Positions 5,051 to 57,112 are shown, numbered from the whole stretch's first letter. The stretch is 62,111 nt of DNA, filler included, from Hausera hauseri (GCA_046269625.1; 11 parts of 11 records of this genome joined end to end with filler, not necessarily neighbours in it); one strand, 5' to 3'. The notes: generated by a model not told the origin, from the sequence alone. Numbers and translations are program-made.

Positions 5051-5396
5051 CATTAATTAAATATTCATAAATTTAATTCACATTATTCAAATGACATTTA
5101 AAGCAGATTACAAAAATCTAAGACAAATTAACTTTAGTTAATATCTTGGTTTTATCAAGTGAGTTCAAATAAATAAGAAATGTGCTTTGAATAGTCGGCG
5201 AAATGCATCGCCCTTTATTCCAAAAAATATCAAGTTTTTTCTTTTATTTTTACGTTGTCATGACAATGTGACCTCAATTCTTTGACACTTTTATTTTTGA
5301 ATATTTCATGAACACTGAAATTTGATAACTATTTTTAATTTAACAGAATTGTATATTTATAAGAAAATAATGAAAATTAAATAAAAATTTACTTTT

Positions 5397-7580
5397 ATGG
5401 AAACCAACAAAACAGACGTTTCTAGCAGAATTAGTTCGTCGTTGCCATCAGAAAATCCGCCGACGTCATTTGTTTCATCGAATTTTGACAATTTAGAAGC
5501 AGCACGAGTTAAAGCTGCCGAACAAATAATCAATGTTGACCAATTTTTTCTGGACATTAACGGAGAAGTAAAAGTTTATTCGGACAAATTCTCGCTGTTG
5601 GGCGACAATTCGGAGGAGCTGAATGACGAACAAACAAGTAAATTAATGATGAATCAACGTTGTTATTTTTTGTCCATAGAATTCGATGATCAAGAGCTAC
5701 AAGGCGATGACGATTTATTGACCCATTCGACGGGGCTAGCCGAAGAATACGCTGATGAGAATGTCAATTTCGCGGCAAATTTCCTGCCGACTGCGTGGAC
5801 AACTGCGGTGATTTATTCGCTACCGACGATCCGGCAAGTGCTGGACACACGTGCCAGCGAGAAATACGCTTCAGGAATGATTGAACTGAAATGCGGCGAA
5901 TTGACAAAAGCACTCACGGCATTTACCCACTGCATTCATTTGAAGCCGAACGAACCGTCGTATTTCGCAAATCGGGCTGAAGTTTATTTCCATTTGACGG
6001 ATTTCCAATCGGCGATACTCAACTACAAACGAGCGTGCATTCTCGATCCGGACAATCGCGATTTTTTCAATCGGCTGACATTCCTCTACGTTTTCCAATC
6101 ACAGATTTTGTTTGACCAGGGAATGCATTCATCCGCACTGGCATCACTGAGTAAAGCCATTGAAATGTGTCCGGATAATCCGTCGTATCAGACACGAGCG
6201 ATCGCTTGTCTCGCTGCAATGAATCGCCATAGCGAATGTCTCGCGCTCATCGACAAACAAATCGCCGATGATAATGGCAATGCGGATTTTTTTGTCCTTC
6301 GTGCGAAATTGCATGCGTCATTTCGTAATTTTACTCTGTGCTACTACGATTTAATTGATGCGTTGAAAATCGATCCGGACCATTGCGAAGCTAAGCGAGT
6401 TCTTCAGCGAATGGCTGACGAGGCCGATATGCTGAAATGCCAGTCTGTCGAAATGGGATTGTGCAGTCGGCTGCATGAAGCCGTCAACAAAATTTCGTTG
6501 GCAATCGAACTCAATCCGATCGTTGGGGATTTCCACGTGAAACGCGGTGCATTTTATCGGCGGATGAAAAATTTTACAGCGGCGATCGACGATTTTTTGA
6601 TGGCGATGGATAAAGTTGATCATGATGAGGAACACGATACGTACCGACTAGCACAACGGCAACTCGTTCTGACTTTCAATGACTTTGCCGTTCAGTGCTT
6701 CTTCCGAGGATGCTACAATGAGGCTCTCACTCTGCTAAACAAAGCCATTCAGTCAGAAAAATCCGAACCGGGATTCTACATCAATCGCGGAGATTGTTTC
6801 TACAAATTACAACAATGGGACTTTGCACTCGCCGATTATGAACAAGCCGCTGGCATGTCGGATTTGTTCGCTTCGACGGGAAAAAGTCGAATGGCTCTTG
6901 TCCATTTCTCCACAGCCCAACGAGCATTCTCATCCGAACGGTACGTCGAAGCAAATAAATCTCTCAGCCTAGCACTAAATAATAACGCTTATCAGTCAGT
7001 ATTTTGGAATACCCGCGCTCGAACAAGGTATCTGCTGGAGGACTTTAGAGGGGCTCGTATGGATTTGATTTGCGGCATTCTACTGGCCGGCTTTGACAAG
7101 TCGATTGAATCAACTTTCCATCGACTTTTTCCTGGCAAAACAATGAACCAAGTGCTGGAATCAAAATTGGCTTCAAATGCCAAGAAAGAATTTATTCAAC
7201 TGTCGGCTAATCAGCGACACAGTCAAGGAAATACGGATGCATTAAATAAATCATTGATTCCACAGCAAACTGATAATTTTCCACACAATGATATAAATAC
7301 AGAGAAGGAACAGTTGCTCGAATCTCTTGTAGAGTGCCGATATGTTGAGCAACAAATTAAACTGATGACTGACGATAAAAGTTTTATGAAAAATAAAATC
7401 GGTGCCGTCCGTCGGTCGTCGATTGAGGATATAATACTGCCTGACAATAGACTGTTGGTTGAACGTATAGTCGGTAAAAGTGACGGAACAAAGTATTTAA
7501 TGAACAGAAATGGTTGTCTTGTTAAAGTTACTGAACCGAAAGGATGGCGAAAATTTAAAAGTGGTATTGAGAAAACATAA
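5397..7580 (+). CDS. TTC16: Tetratricopeptide repeat protein, TTC16-like, single-exon ORF of 727 aa
   Basis: Serial TPR motifs with TTC16-type segments RAEVYFHLTDFQSAILNYKRA, AQRQLVLTFNDFAVQCF, LLNKAIQSEKSEPGFYINRGDCF and GARMDL...RLFPGKTMNQVL. Uninterrupted frame, higher GC than the flanks. Confidence 0.88.
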   Translation: METNKTDVSSRISSSLPSENPPTSFVSSNFDNLEAARVKAAEQIINVDQFFLDINGEVKVYSDKFSLLGDNSEELNDEQTSKLMMNQRCYFLSIEFDDQELQGDDDLLTHSTGLAEEYADENVNFAANFLPTAWTTAVIYSLPTIRQVLDTRASEKYASGMIELKCGELTKALTAFTHCIHLKPNEPSYFANRAEVYFHLTDFQSAILNYKRACILDPDNRDFFNRLTFLYVFQSQILFDQGMHSSALASLSKAIEMCPDNPSYQTRAIACLAAMNRHSECLALIDKQIADDNGNADFFVLRAKLHASFRNFTLCYYDLIDALKIDPDHCEAKRVLQRMADEADMLKCQSVEMGLCSRLHEAVNKISLAIELNPIVGDFHVKRGAFYRRMKNFTAAIDDFLMAMDKVDHDEEHDTYRLAQRQLVLTFNDFAVQCFFRGCYNEALTLLNKAIQSEKSEPGFYINRGDCFYKLQQWDFALADYEQAAGMSDLFASTGKSRMALVHFSTAQRAFSSERYVEANKSLSLALNNNAYQSVFWNTRARTRYLLEDFRGARMDLICGILLAGFDKSIESTFHRLFPGKTMNQVLESKLASNAKKEFIQLSANQRHSQGNTDALNKSLIPQQTDNFPHNDINTEKEQLLESLVECRYVEQQIKLMTDDKSFMKNKIGAVRRSSIEDIILPDNRLLVERIVGKSDGTKYLMNRNGCLVKVTEPKGWRKFKSGIEKT

Positions 7581-8829: not shown

Positions 8830-8847
8830 TGGTGCCGTGACCCGGGA
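8830..8847 (+). promoter_or_regulatory. Primer binding site complementary to the tRNA-His 3' end
   Basis: TGGTGCCGTGACCCGGGA, 2 nt after the LTR-terminal CA. The same 18-mer occurs on the minus strand at 30225-30242. Confidence 0.85.
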
Positions 8848-8960
8848 CCTCTCGATATAAGAAAGAGAAGCTAGTATTCAAGATAACGACCAGAAGAGGG
8901 ACACCTTACCAGGTAGAAATAGAAGATAATCCACCTTTTGGATTAGAGTTCATAAACTAT

Positions 8961-9670
8961 TTGAGTGAAGAAGAAGAGGATAGAATGGCTAGAAACGACC
9001 ACGTAGTAGAGCAGGTGATACAGTCAAAAGCTGACTTCACCCTGCCAATGAAGAAATTTTCAGGGAAGGAGGATGTACAAGACTTCATCATGGAGTACGA
9101 AGTTTATTCAAAGAGCTTTGGATGGACGGACCAACAGCGAATGGAAAGATTACCTCTTCATTTAAAAGGAACAGCCTTAACCATTTACTTCCAGATGCCT
9201 GAAGACGATAAGAAAGATTGGAAAACCGTCAAAGAAAAATTGCCACAAAAGTTTTTAGTTGACCCTTCCGGAAAAGGAAGGATAGAAGAGTTCATACGAA
9301 GAAGGCAACGGAAAGACGAGACGGTTCAAGATTTTGTATGCGCACTGGAGAAATTGGCAGCTAGGGCATATCCTGATGCAACGATAAGAGGTAATGCGCT
9401 ACTGGCTCAATTCCAATATGGACTTGAAGGAAAATTAAGAACGATAATCTTACAGGCTGATCCTCCCACATTTCAGGACGCCATAAGGAAGGCACGTAAG
9501 GCAGAACGTGATGAAGAGTTGTACAAGTGGAGTAAGCCAAAAAGATATAATGGATACGATGATAAGCGAAAGAATAATAATACACAAAAATACGAAAGGT
9601 ATAATAGAAATAGAAGTCCTTCGCAAACTTCAGCCACAGAAGCTGAATCTGACGTTGAGAAGAAAGTGAG
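8961..9670 (+). CDS. gag: Retrotransposon Gag (capsid-like), 3'-truncated; first ATG at about 8985
   Basis: KFSGKEDVQDFIMEYE...WTDQQRMERLPLHLKGTA...W; RRQRKDETVQDFVCALEKLAARAYP...QFQYGL, typical Gypsy capsid motifs. Confidence 0.88.
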
Positions 9671-15794: not shown

Positions 15795-16719
15795 TATTCA
15801 AAAATGAGTCACGAAATATTTAATTTGAATTGTATTATTCAAAGTATCCCCAGACGGTGTTACGTATACCATCAATCCGGCATCTTATGTTAACAGTAAT
15901 CATCTCAGTTATTTCAAATTCGTCGGTCGATTCGTTGCGAAAGCCATATTTGACAACAAATTACTGACGTGCTACTTTACCAGAGCATTCTACAAACATA
16001 TCCTCGGCATTCCCATTCGATACACCGATTTGGAGAAAGAAGATTATCAGTTTTTCCGCGGTCTTGAATTCCTTCTGAAAAACGACGTATCGACGATGTT
16101 CCTCGACCAGACATTTTCTATTCAGATCTCAGAATTCGGCAAAACCGAAACGAGAGAACTCGTACCGAACGGGTCCCAGATAATAGTTGTTGAAGAAAAC
16201 AAACAGGAATACGTTCGACTCGTTTGTCAGGAGAAAATGACCGGGGCCATTCGACAACAGTTGAACAGTTTTCTCGAGGGATTTTACGAGATCATTCCGA
16301 AATCTTTGATATCGATCTTCAACGAAAAAGAACTGGAACTGTTGATTTGTGGTCTTCCCGAAATCGATCTCGCCGATTTGAAGGCCAATACGGTGTACAA
16401 TAAATACACACCAGCATCACTTCAGATTCAATGGTTTTGGCAGGCACTCGAATCGTTCGACCAGGAAGATCTCGCCAGATTTATACAATTCGTTACTGGG
16501 ACGAGTAAAGTTCCGCTGGGTGGTTTTGCGAAATTGGAAGGAATGAACGGTCCAACAAAGTTCCAGATTAGTCTGGCATCAACCAGCACCAATCATTTGC
16601 CTGCCGCTCACACATGTTTCAATTCCATTGATTTGCCTCCTTATGAAAGTTTTGATAAGTTACGCAATCGGCTTCTGACAGCAGTCAGAGAATGCAGTGA
16701 AGGTTATGGAATGATTTGA
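15795..16719 (+). CDS. HUWE1: C-terminal HECT domain of a HUWE1-type E3 ubiquitin ligase (terminal exon or truncated copy)
   Basis: Frame open from 15829: [44 protein letters not shown]...[25 protein letters not shown]...[23 protein letters not shown]...ECSEGYGMI. Catalytic HTCFN is present. 15795-15830 continues the similarity in another frame. Confidence 0.9.
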
Positions 16720-30048: not shown

Positions 30049-30224
30049 NNNNNNNNNNNNNNNNNNNNNNNNNNNNNNNNNNNNNNNNNNNNTTAATTAA
30101 TTAANNNNNNNNNNNNNNNNNNNNNNNNNNNNNNNNNNNNNNNNNNNNTCCTCTGGTTGATAAACTGTTCCTCTTCTTGTGGTAATGGTGATACTTTCTT
30201 AATCCAAAGGTCGTCAAATAATGA

Positions 30225-30242
30225 TCCCGGGTCACGGCACCA
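30225..30242 (-). promoter_or_regulatory. tRNA-His primer binding site directly after the LTR at 30246-31014
   Basis: Minus strand reads TGAACA-AAC-TGGTGCCGTGACCCGGGA. Confidence 0.88.
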
Positions 30243-30245
30243 GTT

Positions 30246-31014
30246 TGTTCAATCCTAACTAATTAGACTAAGGGTAAATGTTTAATTTCGTAAATTTGCC
30301 AATTAATGGGGAGAACAATTTTATGTGACGTATTTCAAAGTTGGAGTATCGTGTATCTTACCTAAGTGATAGTAGGTAATGTGTATCAAGCCCATAACTG
30401 TTTGATATTGCACTCACTACGGTTAAATATCTTATTGATTTATTTAGTGTGACTTGGGCCGTCGTCAGGTAGCTTTAATCTGGTCGACCAATGATCCAAT
30501 TTAATATACGCTTACTTATTTATTTATTTTACTTATTGAAAAGATTGGAAATCCGAAAATAAAATATAATCTGTGCAAAAGCAAACAATTACAAACGACA
30601 ACTTTTAGAATATAGACCAAGAAATTATAATACGTACTTACGTGAAGTCATAGGATTATCAATAACGTAATGTTCATAAAATTCAGTTCAGTTCTGCACC
30701 ACATATTATACCGTTTATATAGTCAAATCAAATTTCACAAAAACAAAAGAAATGAAAAGTAATGACCATAAGTTATAAATAAATCATAAATAACGCATGG
30801 AAACATCGTTGTAAATATACAACTGAACTGTACTCATACAATAATTACATCCTGTAATTAATTACTATATTCCATCATTCTACAGCTCGTAATTATGAAT
30901 AATTAATTCATTGTTTCTGAATAATTAATTCATTGTCTTATACACAGCAGCTCGTAATCATAAATAATTCAGCTCTCATCATTGTGTGGTACGCAGTAGT
31001 CACAGATTCTCACA
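30246..31014 (-). repeat. ~770-bp LTR (TGTGAG...TGAACA)
   Basis: TG...CA termini, AATAAA motifs, PBS on its 3' side; shares CACATTACCTA and the terminal TGAACA with the LTR ending at 8827. The 5' boundary is inferred because the PPT is atypical. Confidence 0.7.
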
Positions 31015-31339
31015 GACTCGCCGGGGGTTCAAAGAATTTGACCCCAAATTTATCAATTGTTTGGGAGAGGCATATAGACGAATTTATCTGTTGTCCGTGA
31101 TTTGTAGCGAATAGATTCCGGTTCGAATACTTCATCGTCCACAATAATGGTTTCATCCACCTATATATGTCGTTTCCGGCCACATTGAGATGTCGTTGGT
31201 GCTGTTCGCACCCCTTCGGAAGCCGCATTCTCAGTTATTAATTCATCAGTCCATTTCACCTGTTTATAGACGCATTGGAAGCACTGCACTAGGGCAGTAC
31301 TACAGAGTGGAAAACCTTTTGTATCGCAGAATTTTCTGG

Positions 31340-32290
31340 CTAACTCTTTGAAAGTGCCTGTGACTGAGTGATACTGGCGAATAATTTCCTCATGATAAAA
31401 ATGTCACGAATTCCGGCCAACCACCGGATTGAGCATTTGAAATGATTTACTACCATTTCAATAACGTCGGCTCCGATTGCAATCTTGTCTGTAAGTATTT
31501 CAGCAACCATGCGGTACAAATCCGGTGGATCCATCTGATTATTGATATTGGCTTTCATAAGGCCCGTTACGTGCGTATCAAAGTTGTTCATATGCTGTCT
31601 TGGGGTGATTATTCCATATAGTAACGTGTTCCCGTGCAAGGTCATGATTGATGCCTCGATAGGTTGGAGTTGATTCCATTGGTCATAAGCCAAGTTTACG
31701 GCCACTATGACCATATCATTATCTGTTATTTTATCGAATCTTCGAAAAGGGACACTTCTATATTTAACATAGTCCGGCTCTGGAACATTGAAGCATTTTC
31801 CGTCGGGGAGGCTTGGGCGAAATTTTTCATTCTTTATTATCTCAATGGCTAAGATGATTCGGTTAGTGTCGGAGCGGATTTTAAATGTGTTTGCGTTAAG
31901 AACATTATGGTCAAAAGAGAGACCATGTTCTTAGTCCAAATTAATGAGATCTCCTTTCAAAGAGATTTTCTTATGGGAGGTTTTAACTTGCAGTTGACCA
32001 GTAAAACAATAGAGATTCATTGAATGAAAACGTTCCGGTACGATCAGTATGTCCGAAAGATAGAAGGAGGTAGCCCTTGAGATTTGCATGAGGGCAATCG
32101 AACGATTGGCCATCCTGTAGCCTTTTATGTTATTTGGGATCTGTTGTGTCTGTGGATAATTAAGACTGATTATAGTATCGTTGTGGACTATATCATATTG
32201 ATTAAATGGATTTGCGTTTATAATGTGGTCTTCGCATTGTTATACCAATGCTTTGATCGGTTAATTGTCTAAATTTGGTGGAACGTTGAC
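31340..32290 (-). pseudogene. Unknown accessory ORF of the Gypsy element (about 315 codons, a few in-frame stops)
   Basis: Track ORFs 31931-32113 and 31340-31714 are one frame when read through stops: IFVNVPPNLDN*PIKALV*QCEDHII...MANRSIALMQ...LINLD*EHGLSFDHNVL...RIILAIEIIK...DNDMVIVAVNLAY. A TTGTTTTTTATAG acceptor-like sequence precedes it. Confidence 0.6.
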
Positions 32291-32440
32291 GAATATACTA
32301 TAAAAAACAAAGTCAATGTGATTCTATGCACGGCATTTAAATTCAACACAACGGTAATTATACACATTACTAAGGTAATCGTTGTGGTTAACATGGGGTG
32401 AATCTTTCGACTAAAGGTAACCAGGTGTTGTTTGGCTATC

Positions 32441-33238
32441 TTATTTCTTAGGGTTGCGTTGACCGCAATCCCTATATCTAATTGTCAGCTGAGATTGTCT
32501 GTATCTACCGGATTCAGTTAGATCACGCATGTTAATTCTAACCCAGCTTCTTCTGCTACGTTTACACCGCGAGTGCACGACTCTAGTTACTATTATTACT
32601 ATTATTATCAATACTATGGGCACTAATAATCCGATTAGTATCATCTCCAGACGAGAATGTTTATATGCGGCTCGGGAGGGTTTGCTAGTTACTTTATTAC
32701 TAATTGTATACTTTTTGTAATTTGATTCCCTCTTATGACTCTTTTTTGTAATTGCCGATATTATATTGGTGGAGGTTATTTTATCGTTATTATCTAATAA
32801 TTGTAGGATCACCGTATATTTTGTGTCAGGGTTTAAGGCTGCGCATGGTACTATCAAGTCGTCGGGTGTTATTACTCCCTTCGCTACTATTGCACCTTCT
32901 TTCGTACAAGTGAATCTGATTTTCATGAAATCTAGGTTTGGCTTAACAGACACGATTAAAGCCGTAGGGGCTGCTATAAGGGTTACGTTATCCCATATAG
33001 AGCTCTTTTGACGATAATAAGACGCGTAAGGTCTGATCAGAATAGTTATTTCTTTTTTGTTGGTCCAGAGATGGACCGCTGGTGTCGTAATCTTTTTCAG
33101 CAAATCATCGTATTCTTTTTTATTATTAAATCGTATAAACATGGTTGGGCCCTTGCGTTCTAATGGATGTCTGAATTTACCATTTCTTCTTCGAAATAGA
33201 AGGTAATAAACGTGGTATATTTTTCCCCGTGTAACCAT
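32441..33238 (-). CDS. Type I membrane protein-like ORF in the env position: FN3-like domain, transmembrane helix, basic tail
   Basis: AALNPDTKYTVILQLL resembles the FN3 LxPxTxYxV signature; TM segment MILIGLLVPIVLIIIVIIV followed by TRVVHSRCKRSRR. Probably extends 5' through a frameshifted stretch to about 33880. Confidence 0.6.
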   Translation of the reverse strand: MVTRGKIYHVYYLLFRRRNGKFRHPLERKGPTMFIRFNNKKEYDDLLKKITTPAVHLWTNKKEITILIRPYASYYRQKSSIWDNVTLIAAPTALIVSVKPNLDFMKIRFTCTKEGAIVAKGVITPDDLIVPCAALNPDTKYTVILQLLDNNDKITSTNIISAITKKSHKRESNYKKYTISNKVTSKPSRAAYKHSRLEMILIGLLVPIVLIIIVIIVTRVVHSRCKRSRRSWVRINMRDLTESGRYRQSQLTIRYRDCGQRNPKK

Positions 33239-33899
33239 ACAGCAAATTCTTTGTTGTTTATCTTTAAGTCTGCAAATCCTAATTTCTGCACCTATATTTT
33301 ATATTCACTTGATTGCTAACCTTCGATCGTTTTCTAATTGTATCAACGTTATAATTTCAATGCAACTTCTCTCACTCTTAAATCCCATTGACCGCACAAT
33401 CAGTTGGTTGAGTATTATTTCATCTATTAATGTCTCATTCATTTGTTGTCTCGTATGGATCACTACTGATCTATAAAATTTTGTTTTCCGACTTTTGTAA
33501 TAATTTCCCTATCTCTCTATAAGTGTAAGGTATATGTAATGAACGCCTGAACCTTGTACCCTACACTGTGTTTGATTGGTATCTGAATGGAATAAACAGT
33601 TATATTGTCGCTCGTTGGGGTCTCTTATTATCATACCATGGTATTATTTGTATCCCCATTATGTATGTTGGGGGCATTTGTTCTGGCATATTCCAGTTTA
33701 TCACTTTTTGACCTTTTTCTGAATATGTTACTCTATACTGTAGGTTTTTCATTAATAGGTCTTCTGTTATGGCTATCACGTGCCGTATTTTTGTGCCTTC
33801 AATCTCTTGGTTCGTCATTTGTTCAATCACTTTGGGCAATAACAAGATTGCCCTTAATAATAGGTACTGCATTAACCAATGGAATCTGTGAGTTGGGTT

Positions 33900-35109
33900 T
33901 ACCTTGGCTGTTTTTTCATTAATACTTAGTACTATCGCTTTTTCACGTTTTCTTGACTCACTTTGCTTGGCGGCTGGCTTACATTTATTAATGTGAACCT
34001 TCAAGGATTTATCATTCTTCTTTAGACAAATATTCGTTAGATCCACTTTTTTACTTCGTAAGGCCCTTTATATGGCCTATCTAACTTGGATGTTTTGCCC
34101 TTTTTACTTGCCGGTGAGTGCAACATTACTTGGTCGCCTATTTTAATTTTTGGCTGTTTGGTTCTCTGGTCATAGTATCTTTTATATTTCAGTTTATAGT
34201 CTTTCTGGCTATCATCAATCGTTTTGTATGCTAACTGGAGGCGTTTCTGCATTAACTGTTTATAATCTTCCATTCCATTAAGTGTGAGACTGGCTTTACA
34301 TTAAAGTCTAGATCAATTGTTAGTCTTGCATCCCATAAATACATTAAGTAGAAGGGGGTTTCTTTAGTAGCTTCATGGACTGATGTCCGATTTACGAAAA
34401 CTCATGCATTGATATATTCGTCCCAATCGTCTTGCCCAATGTTTACTACCGTTTGTAATTTCCCCTTTAAATCTTCAATATATCTCTCGACCATTCCATT
34501 ATTTTCTGGGTGGCCCGGCGTGGATCGTAGTTTTAATATCTTTAAAATATCATATATGGACTGCATTATCGTTCCGGTTAAATTTAATGCTTGATCTGTC
34601 AAGAGGATTCTCGGGGCTCCATAACTAAATACTATATATTTCGCAAATTTTTTGGCGATTGTGTCTGCCTTCATATCAGCCATTGGCAAGGCCACAACCC
34701 ATCTAGTAAAGTAGTCGATAAAGACTAGGATATATCGATTTTCATTGCGGGTTAATGGTAGTGGCCGCGTTATGTCCATTGCAGTAAACTCAAATGGTGC
34801 TGGGGGTTTATCCCATACTTTAAGAGGTGCTTTGTATTTCGTTCCCGTGTTCTTCCGGGTAGCACATAACTTGCAGCTATTGCTCCGTTCCTGCACATCT
34901 TTCGTTATGCTTGGCCAAAAGTATTTCCGTTTTAACTTATTAAGCGTTTTGTTTTCTAATTGGTGTCCACCAAGTAATCCGTCATGGCATTGAGTTAATA
35001 GAACTGCTTTGTTTTTCTGGGGAATGACCAGGGCAGATCCGTTTTGATGAACGAAGTATAAGAATCTTTCTTTTTCTTCATACGCTTCACTGAATCGAGC
35101 GAAATGGCG
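33900..35109 (-). pseudogene. pol: Ty3/Gypsy integrase, disrupted
   Basis: CHDGLLGGH...KYFWPSI...CKLC zinc finger; FTAMDITRPLP, FIDYFTRW, LLTDQALNL, GHPENNGMVER core; SKLDRPYKGPYEV GPY/F module. Confidence 0.92.
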
Positions 35110-35519: not shown

Positions 35520-36717
35520 TAACATAAGTTAATGAGAGAAGTACAGTTAAGATTAAACGAGATACGCAAAAATGTACGAAGAGCGTTCACGGTATTGTTA
35601 AATTATTGCCTTCCAGACGTCACAGTCGACTCAGGGTGGGATGCGTGTTTGGAAGATGTGTACTGCCAAAACCCAAAAACACCCATCCAACTTCAATAAA
35701 AGGATATACTTCCAACAGACCGACGATTTGATATGGAGATGCTCTTAGATCCTGCACGGACCGAGAGAATTAATTGAGCAGATTAACGTCAACATGACGG
35801 AGAGCAAACTAAGACAATGGATCCCTACACTAACCAAACTATCGAGCGAAAATACCGCTTATATCTTAGTACCCAGACTATTGCTAAAGAAATACGCTGA
35901 TTTCTTTAAAGCTAAACCCAAAACGAAGATTAAGGTGAAGATATCAGCTGAATGGATGGAAGAGAAAGAAATTGAATGCACAACGATAACATCCGTTAGA
36001 GAAATAAAGCAATGGATAGTACAAAACGGTGGGAGAGACGAAATAAAGTATCGGTTATATTTCCGAGATATGATACTGGACGAACCTAAGCTACTGACAG
36101 ATGTTGGAATTATTCCAGAGGAATCAAATCGAATAGTGGCTATAATTACCATCGAACAGACAAAAGACGAGGCTGTAAGAAAAGTGAGAGATGAACATTG
36201 CGTAGGACGCATTTTGGGAATCCGAGACCCTCTCATGTATTTTGACTACCTCCAAAGTGAGGAAGATAAGAAATAATACGATAAGAATCTAGTACCGATT
36301 AGCGAAGCAATACCAAGTGCGCCGAAACAGAAACGACCAGTTGAAAGGCCGAGGAAAATAAGATACGATATTGACCAAAGTGCAGCTTTGATACGAGAAT
36401 TAAAGCAATTATCCATGCCCGCGAATAACTCCGATAGCGAAGAATTAAACGAGTTACTAAGATACATAATTAAAATAGTGAACTATTCAGGACCAAGAAA
36501 TGAGATGGTAGACATAAAAGAGAAAGCAATATATGATGCTGCGAGGATTATGAGAACATTTCAATTCAAAATGAACAAAAGCAACTTACCTGATAAAGTG
36601 TTAATCGAGAAAGTTATGGTAGAGAATACTAAGGAAGAATTGAGGAAAGTAATATTGTACTTGGCAATCAAAACAAATCCCCTAAAGAAAATGAATTCAA
36701 TAAAACTATTGGATTGA
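35520..36717 (+). pseudogene. Accessory region of a large Gypsy element with a ubiquitin-like domain (about 35920-36160)
   Basis: KIKVKISAEWMEEKEIECTTITSVREIKQWIVQNGGRDEIKYRLYFRDMILDEPKLLTDVGIIPEESNRIVAII follows the beta-grasp pattern of ubiquitin (T-V-x-x-I-K...RLIF-G-x-x-L-D...L-x-D-Y-x-I). A homologous copy lies at 45924-46604. Confidence 0.7.
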
Positions 36718-36812
36718 TCAGAAAGGCTGCTAGAAAAATACCTAGAGAGATAAATTGGTCCTAGCTATTTGATGACGAAGATGGAAACAGGCCAACAACT
36801 AGAATTAAAGAT

Positions 36813-38795
36813 GTGGTAAGGAATTTAATACCAACTAACTCAGCGCGAGACAGTAAATCAAATTGGATGTTTAAACTAATAACTCTTATGGTGTTAGTAA
36901 AACAACTTGGTTCAATCACGGTATATGACTGTGATAAGTTTAAAATAGGTCAAAAATATTCTGTGATGGATCTGGAGTTGTGTGAGGATGCCAGACCCCA
37001 CAAGTTAGTAACCATTGAGACAAAGTATTTTTTGTACCAACAACGCAAACTAATCGCAATAGATGGAATAGAGTGCATGTTACGACGATCACAAAGCATT
37101 TTCCACTATGGAAATGTGCACGGACATTCATCAATCGTAAAGCCAACGATGCCACGAATACGTATGAATTTAGATCGACAACAATGCAAACAAGCCAAGA
37201 AAACAGGAAGATTGAGATTGGATGGGATGGCGTTAGAATCCCAGCCAGAAAGGATAATTCTGGTGTACAAAGTAGCAATTGGGAAATTTGACATTCACAC
37301 TGGATACTGTAAAGAAGGTGAATACGATACAGGAAAAGGAAGAAAATCAGGAATAATAGTAGTTGATTTCTATGAGACAAAGATGAGGAACCAAAAGATG
37401 ATGTTTTGTAGCGTTACAAAAACATATACAGAAAATCAGAAGTGTCATATCCACGACGGTGCATGTACTTTCCGAAATTCGATAGTTATTTGGACTCCGC
37501 CACCTATGAATGATTATAACTGTATTAAAATAAAAGAGGTAAATTTGAACAGAACCACGGAAAAAAAATATGTAGACAAAACCGACAATAATGCCAGGTC
37601 AAGGAAGGACGTCGCTGAGGAGTCTACACCCACGATTCTGATCTCCAAAGATCACGGATTAAAGTTCATTAAAAGGCAAATGCTTTCTAGATGTAATGTA
37701 GTAATGTGCTGACACAAATTATGGAGCCTTCTTCGTAGCAGAAGTAGCAATAACTACTTTTGCTTTGGAACACAAGATGTAAGAATAGAAGATTACTTGA
37801 AGAATAGAGATGATTACTTCTATTATAAAGGGCAAATTGGACTAGCAGACTTATATCGCAAGATGATTGCAAACGACTGTAAATTGGACATAAAAATTAT
37901 GAGAACCAAACTAGCCTTAATCTATACAAATCCAGAACTGGCGTCACCTGTAATTCCGATGAATGTAGGCATTTTCGGAAGAGTTACCAGAGAAGTTCTG
38001 TTGACCTACAAATGCAAAAAACGAAATGTATCCCTGAAAGTGGAGGAAAAACGTTGTATCCAAGAATTGCTTGTTATATATCAGAAAGTATCTCCATTGG
38101 CTATGTCACTTACAAGAGTTTTGCTAGAAAACTCGACACAGCCAACAATTTTGAAAGAATGCAAAGCAGGTTTAGGGGAACCTATGTTTAAGGGAAGTGA
38201 GACAGATTGGGTAAGCGTGCCAAATGGGGGAATAATAGCTACGCCTTGTAAATTAACTGGAACAAATTTGTTAAAAGGAATAACAGACGATAAGTTTGCC
38301 GACACTGCAAGTAAAGGGATTTACAGACCCAAGGAAATTGAAGCCTTCGGACATTTCTTAGCCTTCCCTCAACAGCGTTCGCATGAGTTAAATAGAGTCC
38401 TGTCAACGGTGATGGATGTCACCCGCTATCAAACAAAATGGGAATTTCTACTTGGCGTTAATCATTATCAAAGAGTCACTACAGAAATACTACATAAAAT
38501 CTGCGGAAGATTTTTAATTTTTGGACAAGCTGCATCAGGATTTTTCGCTATCTACTTTTCGGTACAACTCGTAAAGGCTGTAATTCAATCTATCATAAAT
38601 GACTATGAAATATTTACACTAACCGGATTTTCATGCGAAATTTTTATCGCGATCATACCGCCGTTTGGAAAATTTTTGAAGGCCTACGAAGAAAACAGAT
38701 GGAAAAGCGATGTGGAGAGACACGTTGGTTATTATAATCGGAAACGAAAGAGAAAACTTATATTTTTTATAGGACAAAGAATGACAAAAATTTGA
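36813..38795 (+). pseudogene. env: Envelope glycoprotein of the chuvirus / herpes gB-like (class III fusogen) type, interrupted by in-frame stops at about 37710-37790
   Basis: Signal-like MFKLITLMVLVKQLG, then ITVYDC...YSVMDLELC, IECMLRRSQSIFHYG...HSSIV, QQCKQAKKTG, GYCKEGEY, LYRKMIANDCKLD, EVLLTYKC, CIQELLV, ASKGIYRPKEIEAFGHFLAFP, RFLIFGQAASGFFAIYFSVQLVKAVIQSII. These motifs are colinear with chuvirus-type glycoproteins. Both track ORFs are in the same frame. Confidence 0.85.
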
Positions 38796-41590: not shown

Positions 41591-41723
41591 GTAATTCTAA
41601 TAAGAGTGTTAGAATTTATCTGCTCTTATAATTGCACTTCAAACTGAAATTTGTTTATTGTTATAGTTGGGTGCTGGATAGAGCTCACCTTTAACTACTA
41701 ACATTTGGCGACCCTGGCATGAC
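41590..41723 (+). promoter_or_regulatory. Truncated LTR 3' end (ends ...CTAACA at 41703) and PBS, probably tRNA-Arg
   Basis: ACTAACA-TT-TGGCGACCCTGGCATGAC (PBS 41706-41723), followed by gag. Confidence 0.7.
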
Positions 41724-44800: not shown

Positions 44801-46604
44801 ATTTGATGCATTATGCCAATTAAAATTTATGAAAACCAAACAAGAAATGAAGATACTGGAGAACATATACAAAATGATCGAAGAAACGAACTTTACAGAA
44901 AAGTTGAACATGATCTGTAACTTCCATCCGAGATTAAGGAATGTTTGCTTAGAAGGAATCCAACATTTGACAGCTAAACCTATCGAACAAATCACAATTC
45001 GGGATCTTGAAATCTTGGACTTTTATCCGGAACATCGATCAGCTATAAAAGAGGCAATAGAATTCCTACACAAACCCTAAGAGTGGGTGATAGGGACAGA
45101 TCAAAGATGTCATACTAAACTGACAAAAATAAAAAATGACTACCACCTCAGCTTTGAAGTAGTCAAGTTTGTAAATTGGTTGCTCGATGCTATAGATCCA
45201 GACTCAAAACTTATTAATGAGATGTATAAATTAGCACTACTAATAGTGGAAACGGCAGAAATTAGTGATGAGAAAATAAGACAAGTGATGGCTTAGATAC
45301 GATGAGTCGAAGAAACTTGTATTAAAACCAAATAGAGAGCGATAAGATTAGACGAACTAGTTAAAGAACTCGAAATTTATATAGCTAAGTATGCCCTTAC
45401 AGACTTAGAAAAAGCCAATAAGTCACAATTTGTGCAAATGTGCAAAGAGACGTAGTCTCTGAATTAATTAATTATAAAGAGAAGAAATTGATCCAGGCCG
45501 AGCAATTATGTCAGCTGTTAACATTATTGCAGCAAATGTTCGGCAGTGGACGTTGCTTTCGTACGACACAAATGGATAAAATGCAACGTAAATTACGCGA
45601 ATTAAGAGGATCAGCACGGAATTCGGAAGTGGCTTAGCTAGTGGACAGGTTAACAGTTGATTACAGACTGTCAGATAGCGAAAACGAACTAGAATGGGAT
45701 GCGTACTTAAACGCAATGATTTCTGAAAATTCGAAAACCCCCACATGTTTGTACGAGACGAAGACTTGTCCACAAGATAGGAGATTCAGTGTGGAAATGC
45801 TTCTGGATTCAGAGAAAACTGAAAAGGACTTAATTAAATTAATTAATGTAAATCTTACTTAAAATCAATTAAGGCAGCTAGTTTCTACTCTAACTAAATT
45901 ATCTAGCGAAGGTACAATCTATAGTGCCGTACCGAAACTTTTTAAGGACCAAACCCGAAGAGACAGTTAAAGTAAAAATATCGTTGGACCCGATGGACAA
46001 GAAAGCGCAAGAGTTTACTACGCGCTCTGTCGTAAGAGACGTGGTACAGTGGCTAATGAGTAACGGTTGCGCAAGTGAATTGGACTATAAACTTTACTTT
46101 AGAGGTAGAATATTAGACGAACTGGAAGAATTAATAGACGTCGGAATTATGCGAGGTGAAACAAATCGAATAGTAGTAACGGTCGCTATGGAGGAGACAA
46201 AAGAAGAAGCCACAAGGAGGGCTAAAACAGATCAGTGTGTAGGACAAATCGTGGGAGTTCGACATGTAGCAATGTACATTGAGTACTTGCAAACGGACGG
46301 AGAAAAACAGTATGATAAGAATCTAGTGTCATCTAGCGAGAACGTACCAGTTATAGAAAAACAGAAGCGTCCTGTTGGTAGACTGCGAAAGGCACGAGAA
46401 GAGACTGATTTTAACGGGGATTTAATTAGGGAGTTGACGCAATTGTTCATACCAACTTTTAGTACAGAAAACGAAGAGCTGAATGAACTTATGAAAAACT
46501 TGATACGCATAGTAAACCATTCTAGTCTCTGTGGCGATGTATTAGATAAAAAAGAGAAATCTGTATACAATTCAGCCAAAACAATGAGAAATTTCCGATG
46601 CAAA
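41888..46604 (+). pseudogene. gag: Decayed gag plus a long accessory polyprotein region (N/R-rich linker, CCHC knuckle, predicted helical/coiled-coil region, ubiquitin-like module) of a large Gypsy element
   Basis: LPAYKGDTDGLNKFF, KRLSLYLKNLGADAYSEL, ARPENFDKTLQLAQDLE; ICYTFGQEGHVARSCP at about 43035-43080; E/K/L-rich ORFs 43096-45640; Ubl-like VKVKISLD...YKLYFRGRILDELEELIDVGIMRGETNRIVV. No pol within 4.7 kb of the gag start. Confidence 0.8.
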
Positions 46605-46704
46605 NNNNNNNNNNNNNNNNNNNNNNNNNNNNNNNNNNNNNNNNNNNNTTAATTAATTAANNNNNNNNNNNNNNNNNNNNNNNNNNNNNNNNNNNNNNNN
46701 NNNN

Positions 46705-53030: not shown

Positions 53031-56000
53031 AATCAAGCATTTCAAAGAATAGAGTTAAGCCTTTTAGAATATAGAATAAAGCATTCAAAGAACAGAATCA
53101 AGAACTTCAAAATTATAGAATCAAGCATTTCAAGGAATAGAATCAAGCGTTTCAATGAATGTAATCAAGCATTGCAAAGAATAGAGTCAACCGCTTTAAA
53201 AAATAGAATCAGGGCTTTCAAAGAACAGAATCAAGAACTTTAAAATCTTAGGATCAAGAATTTCAAAGAATAGAATCAAGCCTCTCAAAGTGTAGAATCA
53301 AGCATTTCAAAAAATAGAATCATGCGCTTTAAAATATAAAATGAAGCGTTCCAAACAATAGAATGAAATATTTTAAAGTATAGAGTCAAACATTTCGAAT
53401 AAATAATTCAAGCATTTCAAAGAATAGAATCAAGTATTTCAAAGAATAGAATCAAGCGTTTCAAAGAATAGAATCAAGCTTTCAAAAGAAAAGAATGAAG
53501 TATTTGAAAGAATAGAGTCAAGCATTTCAAAGAAGTGAATTAAGCATTTCAAAGAATTGAATCGAGCATTTCGTAGTATAGAATCAAGAGTTTCAAAGAA
53601 TAGAATCAAGAGTTTCAGTGAATCGAATCTAGCGTTTCAAACTATAGAATAAAGTATTTCAAAGAATAGAGTCAAGCGTTTTACAAAATAGAATCAAGGC
53701 TTTCAAACAAGAGAATCAAGAACTTCAAAATTATAGAATAAAGCCTTTCAAAGAATAGAATTAAGCGTTTCGAAGCATGGAAACAAGCATTTTAAAAAAT
53801 CCATTCTATCGTTTCAAAGAATAGAATAAAGGCTTACAAAGAGCAGAATCCGTAGTATGAACAAATAGAATCAAGCGCCTCAAAGAATAGAATCAAGACT
53901 TTCAAAGAATTGCATGTAGCGTTTCAAACAATAGAATAAAGCATTTCAAAGATTAGAATCAAGCGTTTTAAAAAATAGAATCAAGCCTTTCAAAGAATAG
54001 AATCAAGCGCTTGAAAGTATAGAATCAAGCATTTCAAAAAATAGAATCAAACATTTCGAATAAATGATTCAAGCAATTCAAAGAAAAGAATCAAGGGTTG
54101 GGAAGAATTGAATCAAGTTTTTGAAAGAATAAAATCAAGAATTTCAAAGAATAGAATAAAGCATTTCAAAAAATAGAAACCAGCATTTCAAGGAAGTGAA
54201 ACAGGCGATTCAAAGTTTTATATCAAGTGTTTCAATGTATAGATTAAAGCATTTCAAAGAATAAAAACAATCGTTTCAAAGAAGAGAATCAAGGGTTTCA
54301 AATAATTGAATCAAGTTTTTTAAAGAATAGAATCAAGCAGTTCAAAGAATACAAGAAGCGCTTATAAGAATAGAATCAAGTATAGCAAGGAATAGATTGA
54401 AGCATTTCAAATAATAGAATCAAGCATTTCAAAGATTAGAAACAAGGGTACCAACGAATAGAATCATGCATTTTAAAGAAGAGAATCAAGCACTTCAAAG
54501 AATAGAAACAAGCGCAGCAAAGAATAGAATCAAGCATTTTTAAGAATAGAATCAAGCATTTCAAAAAATCGAATCAAACATTTCAAAAAGTAATATCAAG
54601 CGTTTCAAAGAATAGAATCAAGCATTTCGAAGAATAGAATTTATCGTTTCAAAGAATGGAATCAAGCGTTTCAAAGAATAGAAAAAAGTGTTTCAAAGTA
54701 TAGAATCAAGCATTTCAAAAAGTAGAATGAAGCTTTTCAAACAATAGAATTAAGCATTTCAAAGAATAGAATAAAGCGTTTCAAAGTATAGAATCAAGCA
54801 TTTCGAATAATTGAACCAAAGTTTCAAAAAATTGAATAAAGTGTATCAAATAATGGAGTCAAGCATTTCGAAGAGTAGAAACAAGGTTTTCAAAGAATAG
54901 AATCAAGCATTTCAAAGAAGAGAAAGAAGCAATTCAAAGTATTATAACAAGCGTTTCAATGTATAGAATCAAGCATTTCAAAGAGTAGGAAGAAGAGTTT
55001 GAAAGAATAGAATCAAGCATTTCGAAGAAGAGAATAAAGCATTTCGAATATATGGATCAAGCATTTCAAGGAATAGAATCAAGCATTTCAAGAAATGGAA
55101 ACAAACTTTTCAATGGATAGAATCAAGGATTCCAAATAAATGAATCAAGCGTTTTAAAGTATATACAATCAAGGGTTTCGAAAATAAAATCAAATATTGA
55201 AGAACAGAAACAAGCGTTTCAAAGAATAGAATCAAGTGTTTCAGAGAATGGAATCAAGCATTTCAAAGAATAGTATCAAGGTTTTCAAAGAATAGAATCA
55301 AGCGTTTCAAAGAATAGAATCAGGCATTTCAAAGAGTAGAATGAAGCATTTCAAAAAATACAACAAGCTTTTATAAGAATACATTTAAGCATTGCAAAGA
55401 ATAGATTCAAGCACTTCGAACAATAGAATCAAGCATTTCAAATAGTAGAAACAAGGGTATCAAGGAATAAAATCAAGCATTATGAAAAACGGAATAAGGC
55501 ATTTCGAATAAATGAATCAAGCATTTTAAAGTATATATAATCGAGCGTTTCAAGGAATAGAATCAAGCATTTCAAAGAGCAGAAACAAGCGTTTCAAAGA
55601 ATAGAATCAAGAATTTGAAATAAATGAATCAAGCGTTTTAAAGTTTATATGATCAAACGTTTCAAAAATAGAATAAAGCATTTCAAAGAAGAAATTCAAG
55701 ATTTTCAATTGATAGAATGAAGGATTTCAAATAAAGAAATGTAACGATTCAAAGTATATATAATCAGGAGTTTCAAAGAATATAATCAAGCATTTCAAAG
55801 ATCAGAAAGAAGCGTTTCAAAGAATGGAATCTACCGTTTTAAAGAATGGAATCAAGTGTTTCAAAGAATAGAATCAAACGTTTCAATTAATTGAATAAAG
55901 TATTTCAAAGAATAGAATCAAGCATTTTAAAGAATAGATTCAACCATTTCAAATAAAAGAATCAAGCATTTCGAAGAAGAGTCTAATGCACTTGGAATAA

Positions 56001-57112
56001 TTGGATAAGCGTTTCAAAGAATAGAATCAAGAATTTTATGGAATGGAAACAAGCGTTTCAATGGGTAGAATCAAGGATTTCAAATAAATGAATCAAGCGT
56101 TTTAAAGTATATATAATTAAGCGTTTCAAAAATACAAAAAAGCATTTTAGAGCTCAGAAAGTAGCCTATTGAAGTACATAATCAAGCATTTCAATGTATA
56201 GAATCAAGCATTTCAATGAATAAAACCAAACGTTTCAAAGAATACAATCAAGCGTTTCAAAGAATAGTATCAAGCATTACAAAGAATAGAATAAAACATT
56301 TCGTGTAAATGGATCAAGCCTTTCAAAGAATAGAATCAACATTTCGAAGAATAGAAGAAATTTGCTCAAAGAATAGAATGAAGCATTTGAAAGAATAGAA
56401 TAAAGCGTTTTAAAAAATAGAACGAAGGCACTCAAAGCATATAATCAGGGGTTTCAAAGAATAAAATCAAGCATTCGAAAGAATAAAATCAAGCGTTTCA
56501 AATAATAGATTCAAGGGCTTCAAAGAATTGAACCAATTGTTTGAAAGAATAGAATGAATCATTTCAATGAACAGAAGCAAGCGTTTCAAAGACTGGAATC
56601 AAGCATTTCGACGAATGGAATCAAGCATTTCAAATAAATGTATCAAACTTATCAAGGAATACAGTCAGGCATTTCAAAGAATAGAATCAAGCATTTCAAA
56701 AAAAAGAAACAAGAGTTTCAAAGAACAGAATCAAGCTTTTAAAGGAACAGACTCAAGCACTTCAAAAACTGAATCAAGTGTTTCAAAGAATAGAATCAAG
56801 TATTTCAAAGAATAGAAAGAAACGTTTCCAAGAGCAGAATGAAGCATTTCAAAGAAGGGAATCAAGCATTTCATCGAACATAAACAAGCGATTCAAAGAA
56901 TATAATGAAACGTTTAAAATTATTGAATCAAGTGTTTCAAAGAATTGTATCAAGTGTTTCAAAGTATAGAATCAAGTATTTCAAAGAATAGAATGAAGCA
57001 TTTCAAAGATTAGAAAGAAGCGTTTCAAATAATAGAATCAAGCATTTCAAAGAATAGAGTTAAGCCTTTTAGAATATAGAATAAAGCATTCAAAGAACAG
57101 AATCAAGAACTT
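53031..57112 (+). repeat. 22-bp satellite array, consensus GAATAGAATCAAGCATTTCAAA, filling the whole contig
   Basis: About 185 diverged tandem monomers. The first 77 nt (53031-53107) are identical to the last 77 nt (57036-57112). Confidence 0.97.

Follow-up and report, generated by a model that had tools for sequence, protein, structure and literature searches.

A Decayed Hausera hauseri Gypsy Element Whose pol Gene Runs On into a Putative Type I Membrane Protein with a Predicted FN3 Fold

In the DNA considered here, a Gypsy pol gene, of which the decayed 3′ end is present, runs on into the coding sequence of a putative type I membrane protein whose repeats are predicted to adopt the FN3 fold. 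The chances that this FN3 protein is a second envelope glycoprotein, attaching particles to target cells on behalf of a gB-type fusogen, are judged to be about even. The whole stretch that was analysed, referred to below as the window, comprises 62,111 nt from Hausera hauseri (GCA_046269625.1), in which 11 records are joined with filler.

State of the Window Copy

The window consists of short contigs strung together by N44-TTAATTAATTAA-N44 linkers, with eleven junctions between 4401 and 57212, and adjacency across these junctions is therefore artificial. The element under study is a broken, multi-copy Gypsy on the minus strand of a 5-kb contig (30149–35109). Since the window is a concatenation of such contigs, all parts upstream of the integrase lie off the contig. 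Read along the minus strand, the order is integrase, GPY module, signal-like stretch, beta-sandwich repeats, transmembrane (TM) helix and Arg-rich tail. From integrase to tail, this order is broken by four stops in the minus-strand translation (34404–34402, 33511–33509, 33307–33305 and 33301–33299) and by three frameshifts (near 34270, near 34055 and at 33600–33625). The window copy is dead.

The cargo clearly belongs to a repeat family whose copies have diverged. Run X1 is the one public run found to contain this DNA; 6028 of its contigs, with 80–100% likeness, map to contig 30149–35109 and cover 30 of 30 bins, cargo included, contig depth in this run not being equivalent to copy number. The interval 33280–34420 is represented by 1450 of the run's contigs, and other copies differ from the window copy at or beside several of its break sites. 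The codon positions of these differences are uninformative, because the best-supported ones are dominated by the window copy's own decay. An initial annotation of this DNA had allowed that the ORF might be unique to this copy and match a host gene; the ORF recurs throughout the run, and the homology search described below gave no host gene match. The related idea, that a host gene fragment was secondarily inserted into the window copy and serves no element function, could appeal to the stops and frameshifts that fill this copy, but it is hardly credible given that hundreds of diverged contigs cover the cargo, that intact, in-frame equivalents occur in 10 other lineages, and that a homology search found no host homologue.

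Organization of the Element

All features in this section are on the minus strand unless otherwise stated. The zinc-binding and core domains of a Gypsy integrase occupy 34405–35109 (Pfam Integrase_H2C2, E 7e-17; rve, E 1e-9), upstream of which the contig ends, and this integrase is 49% identical to that of a relative, P0003. The integrase C-terminus and GPY module follow at 33978–34404, interrupted by one stop and two frameshifts; tblastn against P0003 and a second relative, P0010, recovered them as three colinear pieces, each in a different frame. With the H2C2 zinc domain, DDE core and GPY/F module all present, the integrase is that of a Ty3/Gypsy (Metaviridae) element. The second half of the GPY module (VHINKCK, 33998–33978) is in frame with an internal, signal-peptide-like hydrophobic stretch, HWLMQYLLLRAILLLPKV, at 33828–33881. 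The motifs quoted in the initial annotation are all found on this strand where it placed them, as is the continuity of frame between the GPY end and the hydrophobic stretch. The stretch is weak in the window copy, with a best 11-mer hydropathy of 1.97 versus 1.63–3.5 in 12 relatives, and a hydrophobic stretch stands at the equivalent place in all 12 relatives examined.

Beyond it, three FN3-like units can be traced. A probable first repeat (33480–33760, bounds approximate) is broken and resembles the others in motif, with a Cys pair followed by a Y-x-hydrophobic strand; the segment VINWNMPEQ...IIPW lies at 33704–33636, and the match of this repeat to the family profile described below is not significant. 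AlphaFold beta strands and a sub-threshold profile score point to a probable second repeat at 33150–33420, which has two stops and bounds that are again approximate. The membrane-proximal domain (32747–32998), with its conserved Cys pair and LNPDTKY motif, matches the profile at E 1.9e-5, and LNPDTKYTVILQ is located at 32836–32801; significance with the profile is limited to this last domain, the two upstream repeats being recognized by motif likeness and predicted strands.

Translation of the next interval gives a Ser/Thr/Lys-rich stalk (32645–32746), similar to the stalks of relatives, then a TM helix (32585–32644; Kyte-Doolittle 19-mer, 3.57) that corresponds to helix 216–246 of the AlphaFold model, and an Arg-rich cytoplasmic tail of 47 aa, 12 of them Arg, with its stop codon (32441–32584). 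A Met ORF of 265 aa (33238–32444) ends in the helix and tail attributed to it from the start. Described at that time as Cys-poor, the product is so by count (4 Cys in 265 aa), but its domain holds an invariant Cys pair. Hydropathy and the basic tail fit a putative type I membrane protein of ~460–480 aa, in agreement with the ~480 aa originally predicted.

A probable LTR with uncertain bounds (30243–31020) is placed between the last ORF and the primer site with the help of the depth profile; within it, 30650–30980 shows low depth and short repeats. The contig 30149–35109 contains no second LTR copy, and no polypurine run of at least 9 was found upstream of the probable LTR. The tRNA-His primer binding site TGGTGCCGTGAC (30231–30242) is the exact complement of the His_GUG 12-mer in supplementary file 2 of PMC13524379. 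Lying behind the element's 3′ end, the site belongs either to the next copy of a tandem or to a permuted assembly, and it is presumably that of the window's own family. The initial reading of a tRNA-His element is thus sound as to the presence of the site, but the site stands behind the 3′ end and its link to the family is indirect.

A second tRNA-His primer site, in the interval 8830–9670 (plus strand), has 26 of 27 bases in common with that at 30242 and is followed by a Ty3-capsid gag ORF (PF19259, E 7e-6). The element there is of a related family, since its upstream LTR sequence differs. Other contigs of the window carry an intronless ORF for a 730-aa TPR protein (5385–7580, plus strand; Pfam TPR hits), an ORF that by eye resembles a HECT ligase domain (15829–16719, plus strand), and a long array of 22-bp tandem repeats (53031–57112).

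Relatives and Their Architecture

A direct homology search with the 285-aa cargo ORF matched 0 of 577 candidates, and Pfam and PDB sequence searches of the cargo returned TM-segment noise only. Because the cargo alone matched nothing, relatives were sought via the integrase. Even with these in hand, pairwise BLAST of the window cargo against P0003 or P0010 is not significant, and homology rests on the profile. Two integrase trees were built, with published gB-type errantivirus members left out. In the first (49 rows), the window falls in a clade of 12 rows with support of 97/94, and in a larger one (45 of 241 rows) in a clade of 18 rows; the window integrase is a long branch, and clade support fell to 91/92 with more rows. 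In both trees, the pol of the window groups with env-carrying members.

The order seen in the window, together with its reading frame, recurs in these relatives. In P0003 (1782 aa), the integrase frame leads through a signal-like stretch, a segment reading CAVLKPDTPY and a stalk to a TM helix and basic tail, and the L001 locus, which encodes P0010, has the same order with two repeats. Altogether, a signal-like stretch and FN3-like repeats continue the integrase frame in 10 of the 17 other clade members (P0003, P0010, P0013, P0014, P0016, P0020, P0160, P0161, P0162 and P0163), and in nine of these 10 the terminal helix is reached within a single ORF. The last helix of P0013 is only weakly hydrophobic (1.76), and in P0161 a stop interrupts the tail ahead of further repeats and a TM helix (L025). 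Another member, P0019, has a signal, a different, non-FN3 ectodomain and a TM helix in the same slot, and the ORFs of the remaining six (P0011, P0012, P0015, P0023, P0164 and P0165), most of them on short contigs, end without a signal-FN3 tail. L026, from outside the trees, is a truncated additional member with a weak profile score (E 0.033). The order PR-RT-RH-IN is visible in P0003, P0013, P0014 and P0020, and the corresponding part is off-contig in the window. Since the same order occurs in independent, intact relatives, the architecture is beyond chance. The integrase fusion with an internal signal-like stretch that had been proposed for the window is what these relatives display, and the integrase-FN3-TM order that was to be sought in related genomes is represented among them.

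Scans of IMG/VR recovered no clade member (0 loci in one scan and 2 distant loci in another), and none of 96 collected loci matched the gB env. P0020 (HBK71150.1), L025 and L026 are eukaryotic retroelement contigs filed inside bacterial MAGs, that is, bin contamination.

Signal-led tails that follow the integrase and do not match the FN3 profile were seen in P0019, P0044, P0049 and P0088, with a clear TM helix in the first three, and P0088 also has a gB-type env upstream. The slot for a second membrane protein may be wider than the FN3 clade. Extra aspartic-protease-like domains are present behind the integrase in P0016, P0012, P0013, P0015 and P0160, ankyrin repeats precede the second signal of P0016, and, ahead of RT, several members show protease duplication and C2H2-like fingers.

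The FN3-Like Domain Family

Nine repeats from six relatives went into the family profile, and the window contributed none. The motif used to choose the repeats had in part been inspired by the window, and independent checks of the profile therefore matter. When the profile was run against the six frames of the 62-kb window, the window's last domain ranked first, the best unrelated match having an E of 0.009. Leave-one-out profiles recovered P0010 and P0014 (E 1e-11 each) and P0013 (E 0.004), and were weak for P0003 (E 0.08), P0016 (E 0.58) and P0020 (E 0.09). P0160 and P0163, found later and outside the training set, scored E 8e-16 and 1e-5, and among 269 proteins, 223 of them non-clade integrases, there was no match outside the clade. 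In alignment A2, two Cys, a Leu, an Asp and a Tyr are invariant in all six rows at 14–24% identity. In FN3 domains, a conserved Leu and Tyr make up the E-F “tyrosine corner”, and the invariant L57 and Y63 of A2 have this character.

The family lies below the reach of Pfam fn3 (PF00041), which had no hit in the window and at best 12.2 bits in the relatives (cut-off 25; E 0.21). Because the gathering threshold is not reached, the domain is described as FN3-fold and not as a member of Pfam fn3. The fold assignment itself was made with Foldseek. Modelled without an alignment, the window's 285-aa ORF reached a pLDDT of 55, and its best Foldseek rows belong mostly to FN3 domains, those of monobodies, IL-2 receptor gamma, NCAM and fibronectin, the best at E 4.9e-3 and none below E 0.001. 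The tandem domains of L001, modelled with A2, gave a pLDDT of 76.5 and two seven-strand sandwiches, for which pairs of FN3 domains rank highest in the PDB (tenascin, E 4.3e-8) and 174 rows have E ≤ 0.001; the high rmsd of these rows likely reflects a hinge between the two modelled domains. FN3 topology is thus present in the predicted L001 model and weaker in the window's own, and the FN3 fold first proposed from a short FN3-like start is the one predicted for L001. Nip7, the top PDB row for profile A2 (E 0.011), was rejected as the identity of the domain, since the fold search gives FN3.

Cellular FN3 proteins such as tenascin, fibronectin, DCC/neogenin, LAR, Tie2 and NCAM resemble the cargo in their tandem FN3 folds and single TM helix, and an L-x-P-x-T-x-Y-type motif is common to the family and to cellular FN3 (contactin-1 row, E 0.21). 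The family differs from them in having 7–17% identity, scores below the Pfam fn3 threshold and, in most members, a Cys pair of its own. Sequence searches found no cellular donor gene for the FN3 protein, which the initial annotation had proposed to be captured from a host receptor.

A Fusogen Upstream of pol

Two relatives alter the meaning of the cargo. P0013 and P0020 are single ORFs comprising a gB-type fusogen, protease, RT, RNase H, integrase, signal, FN3 and TM, in which the env before pol matches PF24664 at E 1.6e-84 and 3.3e-95, respectively. P0020 starts with a Gag-type zinc knuckle. In the integrase trees, P0013 is nested in the clade and P0020 lies near its base. Judged from these ORFs, the clade has GAG-ENV-POL order. 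An upstream env is visible in two of the 17 relatives, the other ORFs, including the long P0003, beginning inside pol; both relatives whose ORF extends far enough upstream have the gB-type env as well as the FN3 tail. The FN3 protein is accordingly an additional membrane protein, since the fusogen is encoded upstream of pol in the same ORF, and the initial assignment of the cargo to the env slot, if read as a stand-in for env, is not supported. The window's own family probably encodes an upstream gB-type env too.

A decayed element on a neighbouring contig (35210–46604, plus strand) has a gB-type env at 36765–38795 (PF24664, E 1e-11 and 9e-30) upstream of a protease and RT. The best matches of its RT are clade members, with which it groups on a long branch, its place being unsure. 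A primer-like site, TGGCGACC, differing from the His site, occurs at 41706 and is followed by a second related unit, and the ORFs at 35749–36276 and 45894–46652 are related to each other and ubiquitin-like by eye.

These observations weigh on the proposal that the FN3-TM protein has replaced env in the window's family and serves adhesion or cell-to-cell passage without a fusogen. No env is visible for the window's family, the region being off-contig, and 15 of 17 relatives show none in the ORF examined, those ORFs beginning inside pol; there is also a precedent in Drosophila elements of the MDG1-group, for which transmission without env, by a small TM protein, is described (PMC11952523). The pairing of gB-type env and FN3 tail in both far-reaching ORFs, the presence in the same genome of a gB-env-pol element that groups with the clade, and a domain without a fusogen fold make replacement improbable. 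On the last point, a Pfam search found no env family in the cargo, which does not qualify as a class I, II or III fusogen, and a search of viral models with the L001 model listed FN3 proteins and phage tail proteins, none of the named rows being a fusogen.

Divergence of the Ectodomain

In pairs of relatives with integrases that are 87% and 84% identical, the ectodomains are 37% and 26% identical, and between P0013 and P0020 the env (38%) and FN3 domain (30%) have both diverged. Complete FN3 ectodomains contain 2–8 N-glycosylation sequons, and the number of FN3 repeats varies from 1 to 3 or more. Fast change, varying repeat number and sequons would, by analogy, be a signature of the kind seen in host-binding proteins.

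The tail might instead serve mainly to anchor Pol to the membrane for packaging, with an exchangeable ectodomain whose fold is of little import. The signal-like stretch and TM helix are indeed the most constant features, the ectodomain is swapped in P0019, and cleavage by signal peptidase would leave the signal on the integrase side. However, the Cys pair and the L-x-x-D-x-x-Y motif are kept at 14–24% identity and the repeats have been multiplied, which implies selection on a folded ectodomain; an anchoring role of this sort is very improbable.

Accessory ORFs

A second accessory ORF (31340–32239, minus strand), with one internal stop, has a C-terminal part that resembles a DEDDh/ISG20-type exonuclease. 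It matches the third ORF of L001 (L001:4325–6448) at E 4e-4, and a two-sequence profile of the window and L001 ORFs hits ISG20L2 at E 0.013, a weak link to that family. By inspection of alignment A4, the acidic residues of motif I are absent from both ORFs, which therefore fall outside DEDDh in the strict sense. The shared ORF possibly encodes a catalytically dead RNA-binding protein. In L001, a C3HC4 RING ORF (L001:2684–4138) separates the FN3-TM tail from the ORF that resembles an exonuclease.

Proposed Role of the FN3 Protein

If the FN3 protein is a second envelope glycoprotein, the polyprotein would thread the ER membrane twice, with the env signal and TM helix first, PR-RT-RH-IN in the cytosol, and then the second signal, a luminal FN3 ectodomain and its TM helix. 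Signal peptidase would free the FN3 protein and the element's protease would free the integrase, and both glycoproteins would be displayed on the budding particle. There, the fast-changing FN3 ectodomain would bind a host surface molecule and the conserved gB-type protein would fuse the membranes. The even odds given at the outset cover attachment and triggering of the fusogen jointly. A fuller version, in which Gypsy elements of this clade encode a two-glycoprotein entry machine, with Gag, gB-type fusogen, Pol and FN3 receptor-binding protein produced from one polyprotein, the FN3 protein setting tropism or triggering the fusogen, and RING, ankyrin and dead exonuclease as accessories, is tentative, its chances being somewhat below even.

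An unlikely but still substantial alternative is that the FN3-TM protein is a surface accessory of the expressing cell and not of the particle, acting as a decoy or receptor mimic by binding host immune ligands or preventing superinfection. FN3 repeats with a TM helix are the build of the cytokine receptors and adhesion molecules among the Foldseek rows, and a decoy would accord with the very fast divergence of the ectodomain and its 1–3 or more repeats. The slot also holds other ectodomains (P0019, and P0044 and P0049 in a separate gB-containing clade), and other accessories resemble host modulators, namely the RING of L001, the ankyrin repeats of P0016 and the exonuclease-like ORF; such accessories suit host manipulation just as well as an entry role. 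Set against this, the protein is made in one polyprotein with Gag, fusogen and Pol (P0020), which ties its amount and place to particle assembly, its tails are short with no obvious common motif, and its likeness to immune receptors is no closer than to generic FN3.

Comparison with Known Systems

The second-glycoprotein reading has a working analogy, and only that, in viruses whose fusogen is accompanied by a distinct surface glycoprotein of type I or II that varies more, namely herpesvirus gB with the receptor-binding gD, and paramyxovirus F with G/H/HN. The core of gD is an Ig-like beta-sandwich. PDB and viral fold searches did not connect the FN3 protein with gD, gH/gL or G/H/HN, whether by sequence or by fold. 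Among retroelements, Atlas virus, a nematode BEL/Pao, reportedly has a glycoprotein behind the integrase in one polyprotein, with an internal signal. Atlas virus belongs to the Belpaoviridae and its glycoprotein is a phlebovirus-like class II fusogen, whereas the present clade is Gypsy and has a non-fusogenic FN3 fold in that position. Elements of GAG-ENV-POL order with an HSV/gB-type env are said to have been described by Sacco et al. in 2022.

The GAG-ENV-POL order is documented in Nematoda, Bryozoa and Platyhelminthes (Chary and Hayashi 2026, PMC13524379). The errantiviruses treated in that source resemble the present clade in their Ty3/Gypsy pol and in the gB-type env that precedes pol in P0013 and P0020, and its lists include the His_GUG primer class found at window 30242–30231. 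Its His_GUG elements number at least 17 rows, 16 with an F-type env and 1 with a gB-type. What sets the clade apart from the errantiviruses of that source is a further, putative type I membrane protein that is encoded behind the integrase and carries FN3-like repeats. The terms “fibronectin” and “FN3” occur 0 times in its main text and seven supplementary files, as does “immunoglobulin” in the main text.

The LTR retrotransposons of bdelloids carry extra ORF3s, some of which encode small TM proteins or exonucleases of the DEDD family (Rodriguez et al. 2017, PMC5408684), and are similar to the present elements in being Gypsy-type with non-env accessory ORFs behind pol. In the passages of PMC5408684 on these elements, ORF3 is a separate gene, as opposed to a membrane protein fused to the integrase, the exonuclease is of the DEDDy type with intact catalytic residues, as opposed to ISG20-like without acidic motif I, and FN3 is not named. 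“Fibronectin” is likewise absent from the relevant passages of PMC10309623 (Cer1) and PMC12440569 (Troyka). Env-carrying Gypsy elements, GAG-ENV-POL order and extra ORFs are already known from the parts of PMC13524379 and PMC5408684 cited here. In the full-text literature searched, no FN3 membrane protein fused to an integrase is described alongside a gB-type env; mention of one is possible in Sacco et al. 2022, Repbase or bioRxiv supplements.

Implications

According to PMC13524379, herpesvirus entry takes gD, gH and gL as well as gB, and the entry of gB-carrying errantiviruses is unexplained, since the herpesvirus protein depends on partner glycoproteins; none was known from these elements. 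The present clade offers a concrete candidate for a gB partner, which shares one open reading frame with the fusogen, and the entry question is therefore testable with natural, intact genes. The FN3 module is too diverged for Pfam and would be missed by annotation pipelines. If the reading given here is true, complex, multi-accessory, “virus-like” genomes would exist among invertebrate Gypsy elements.
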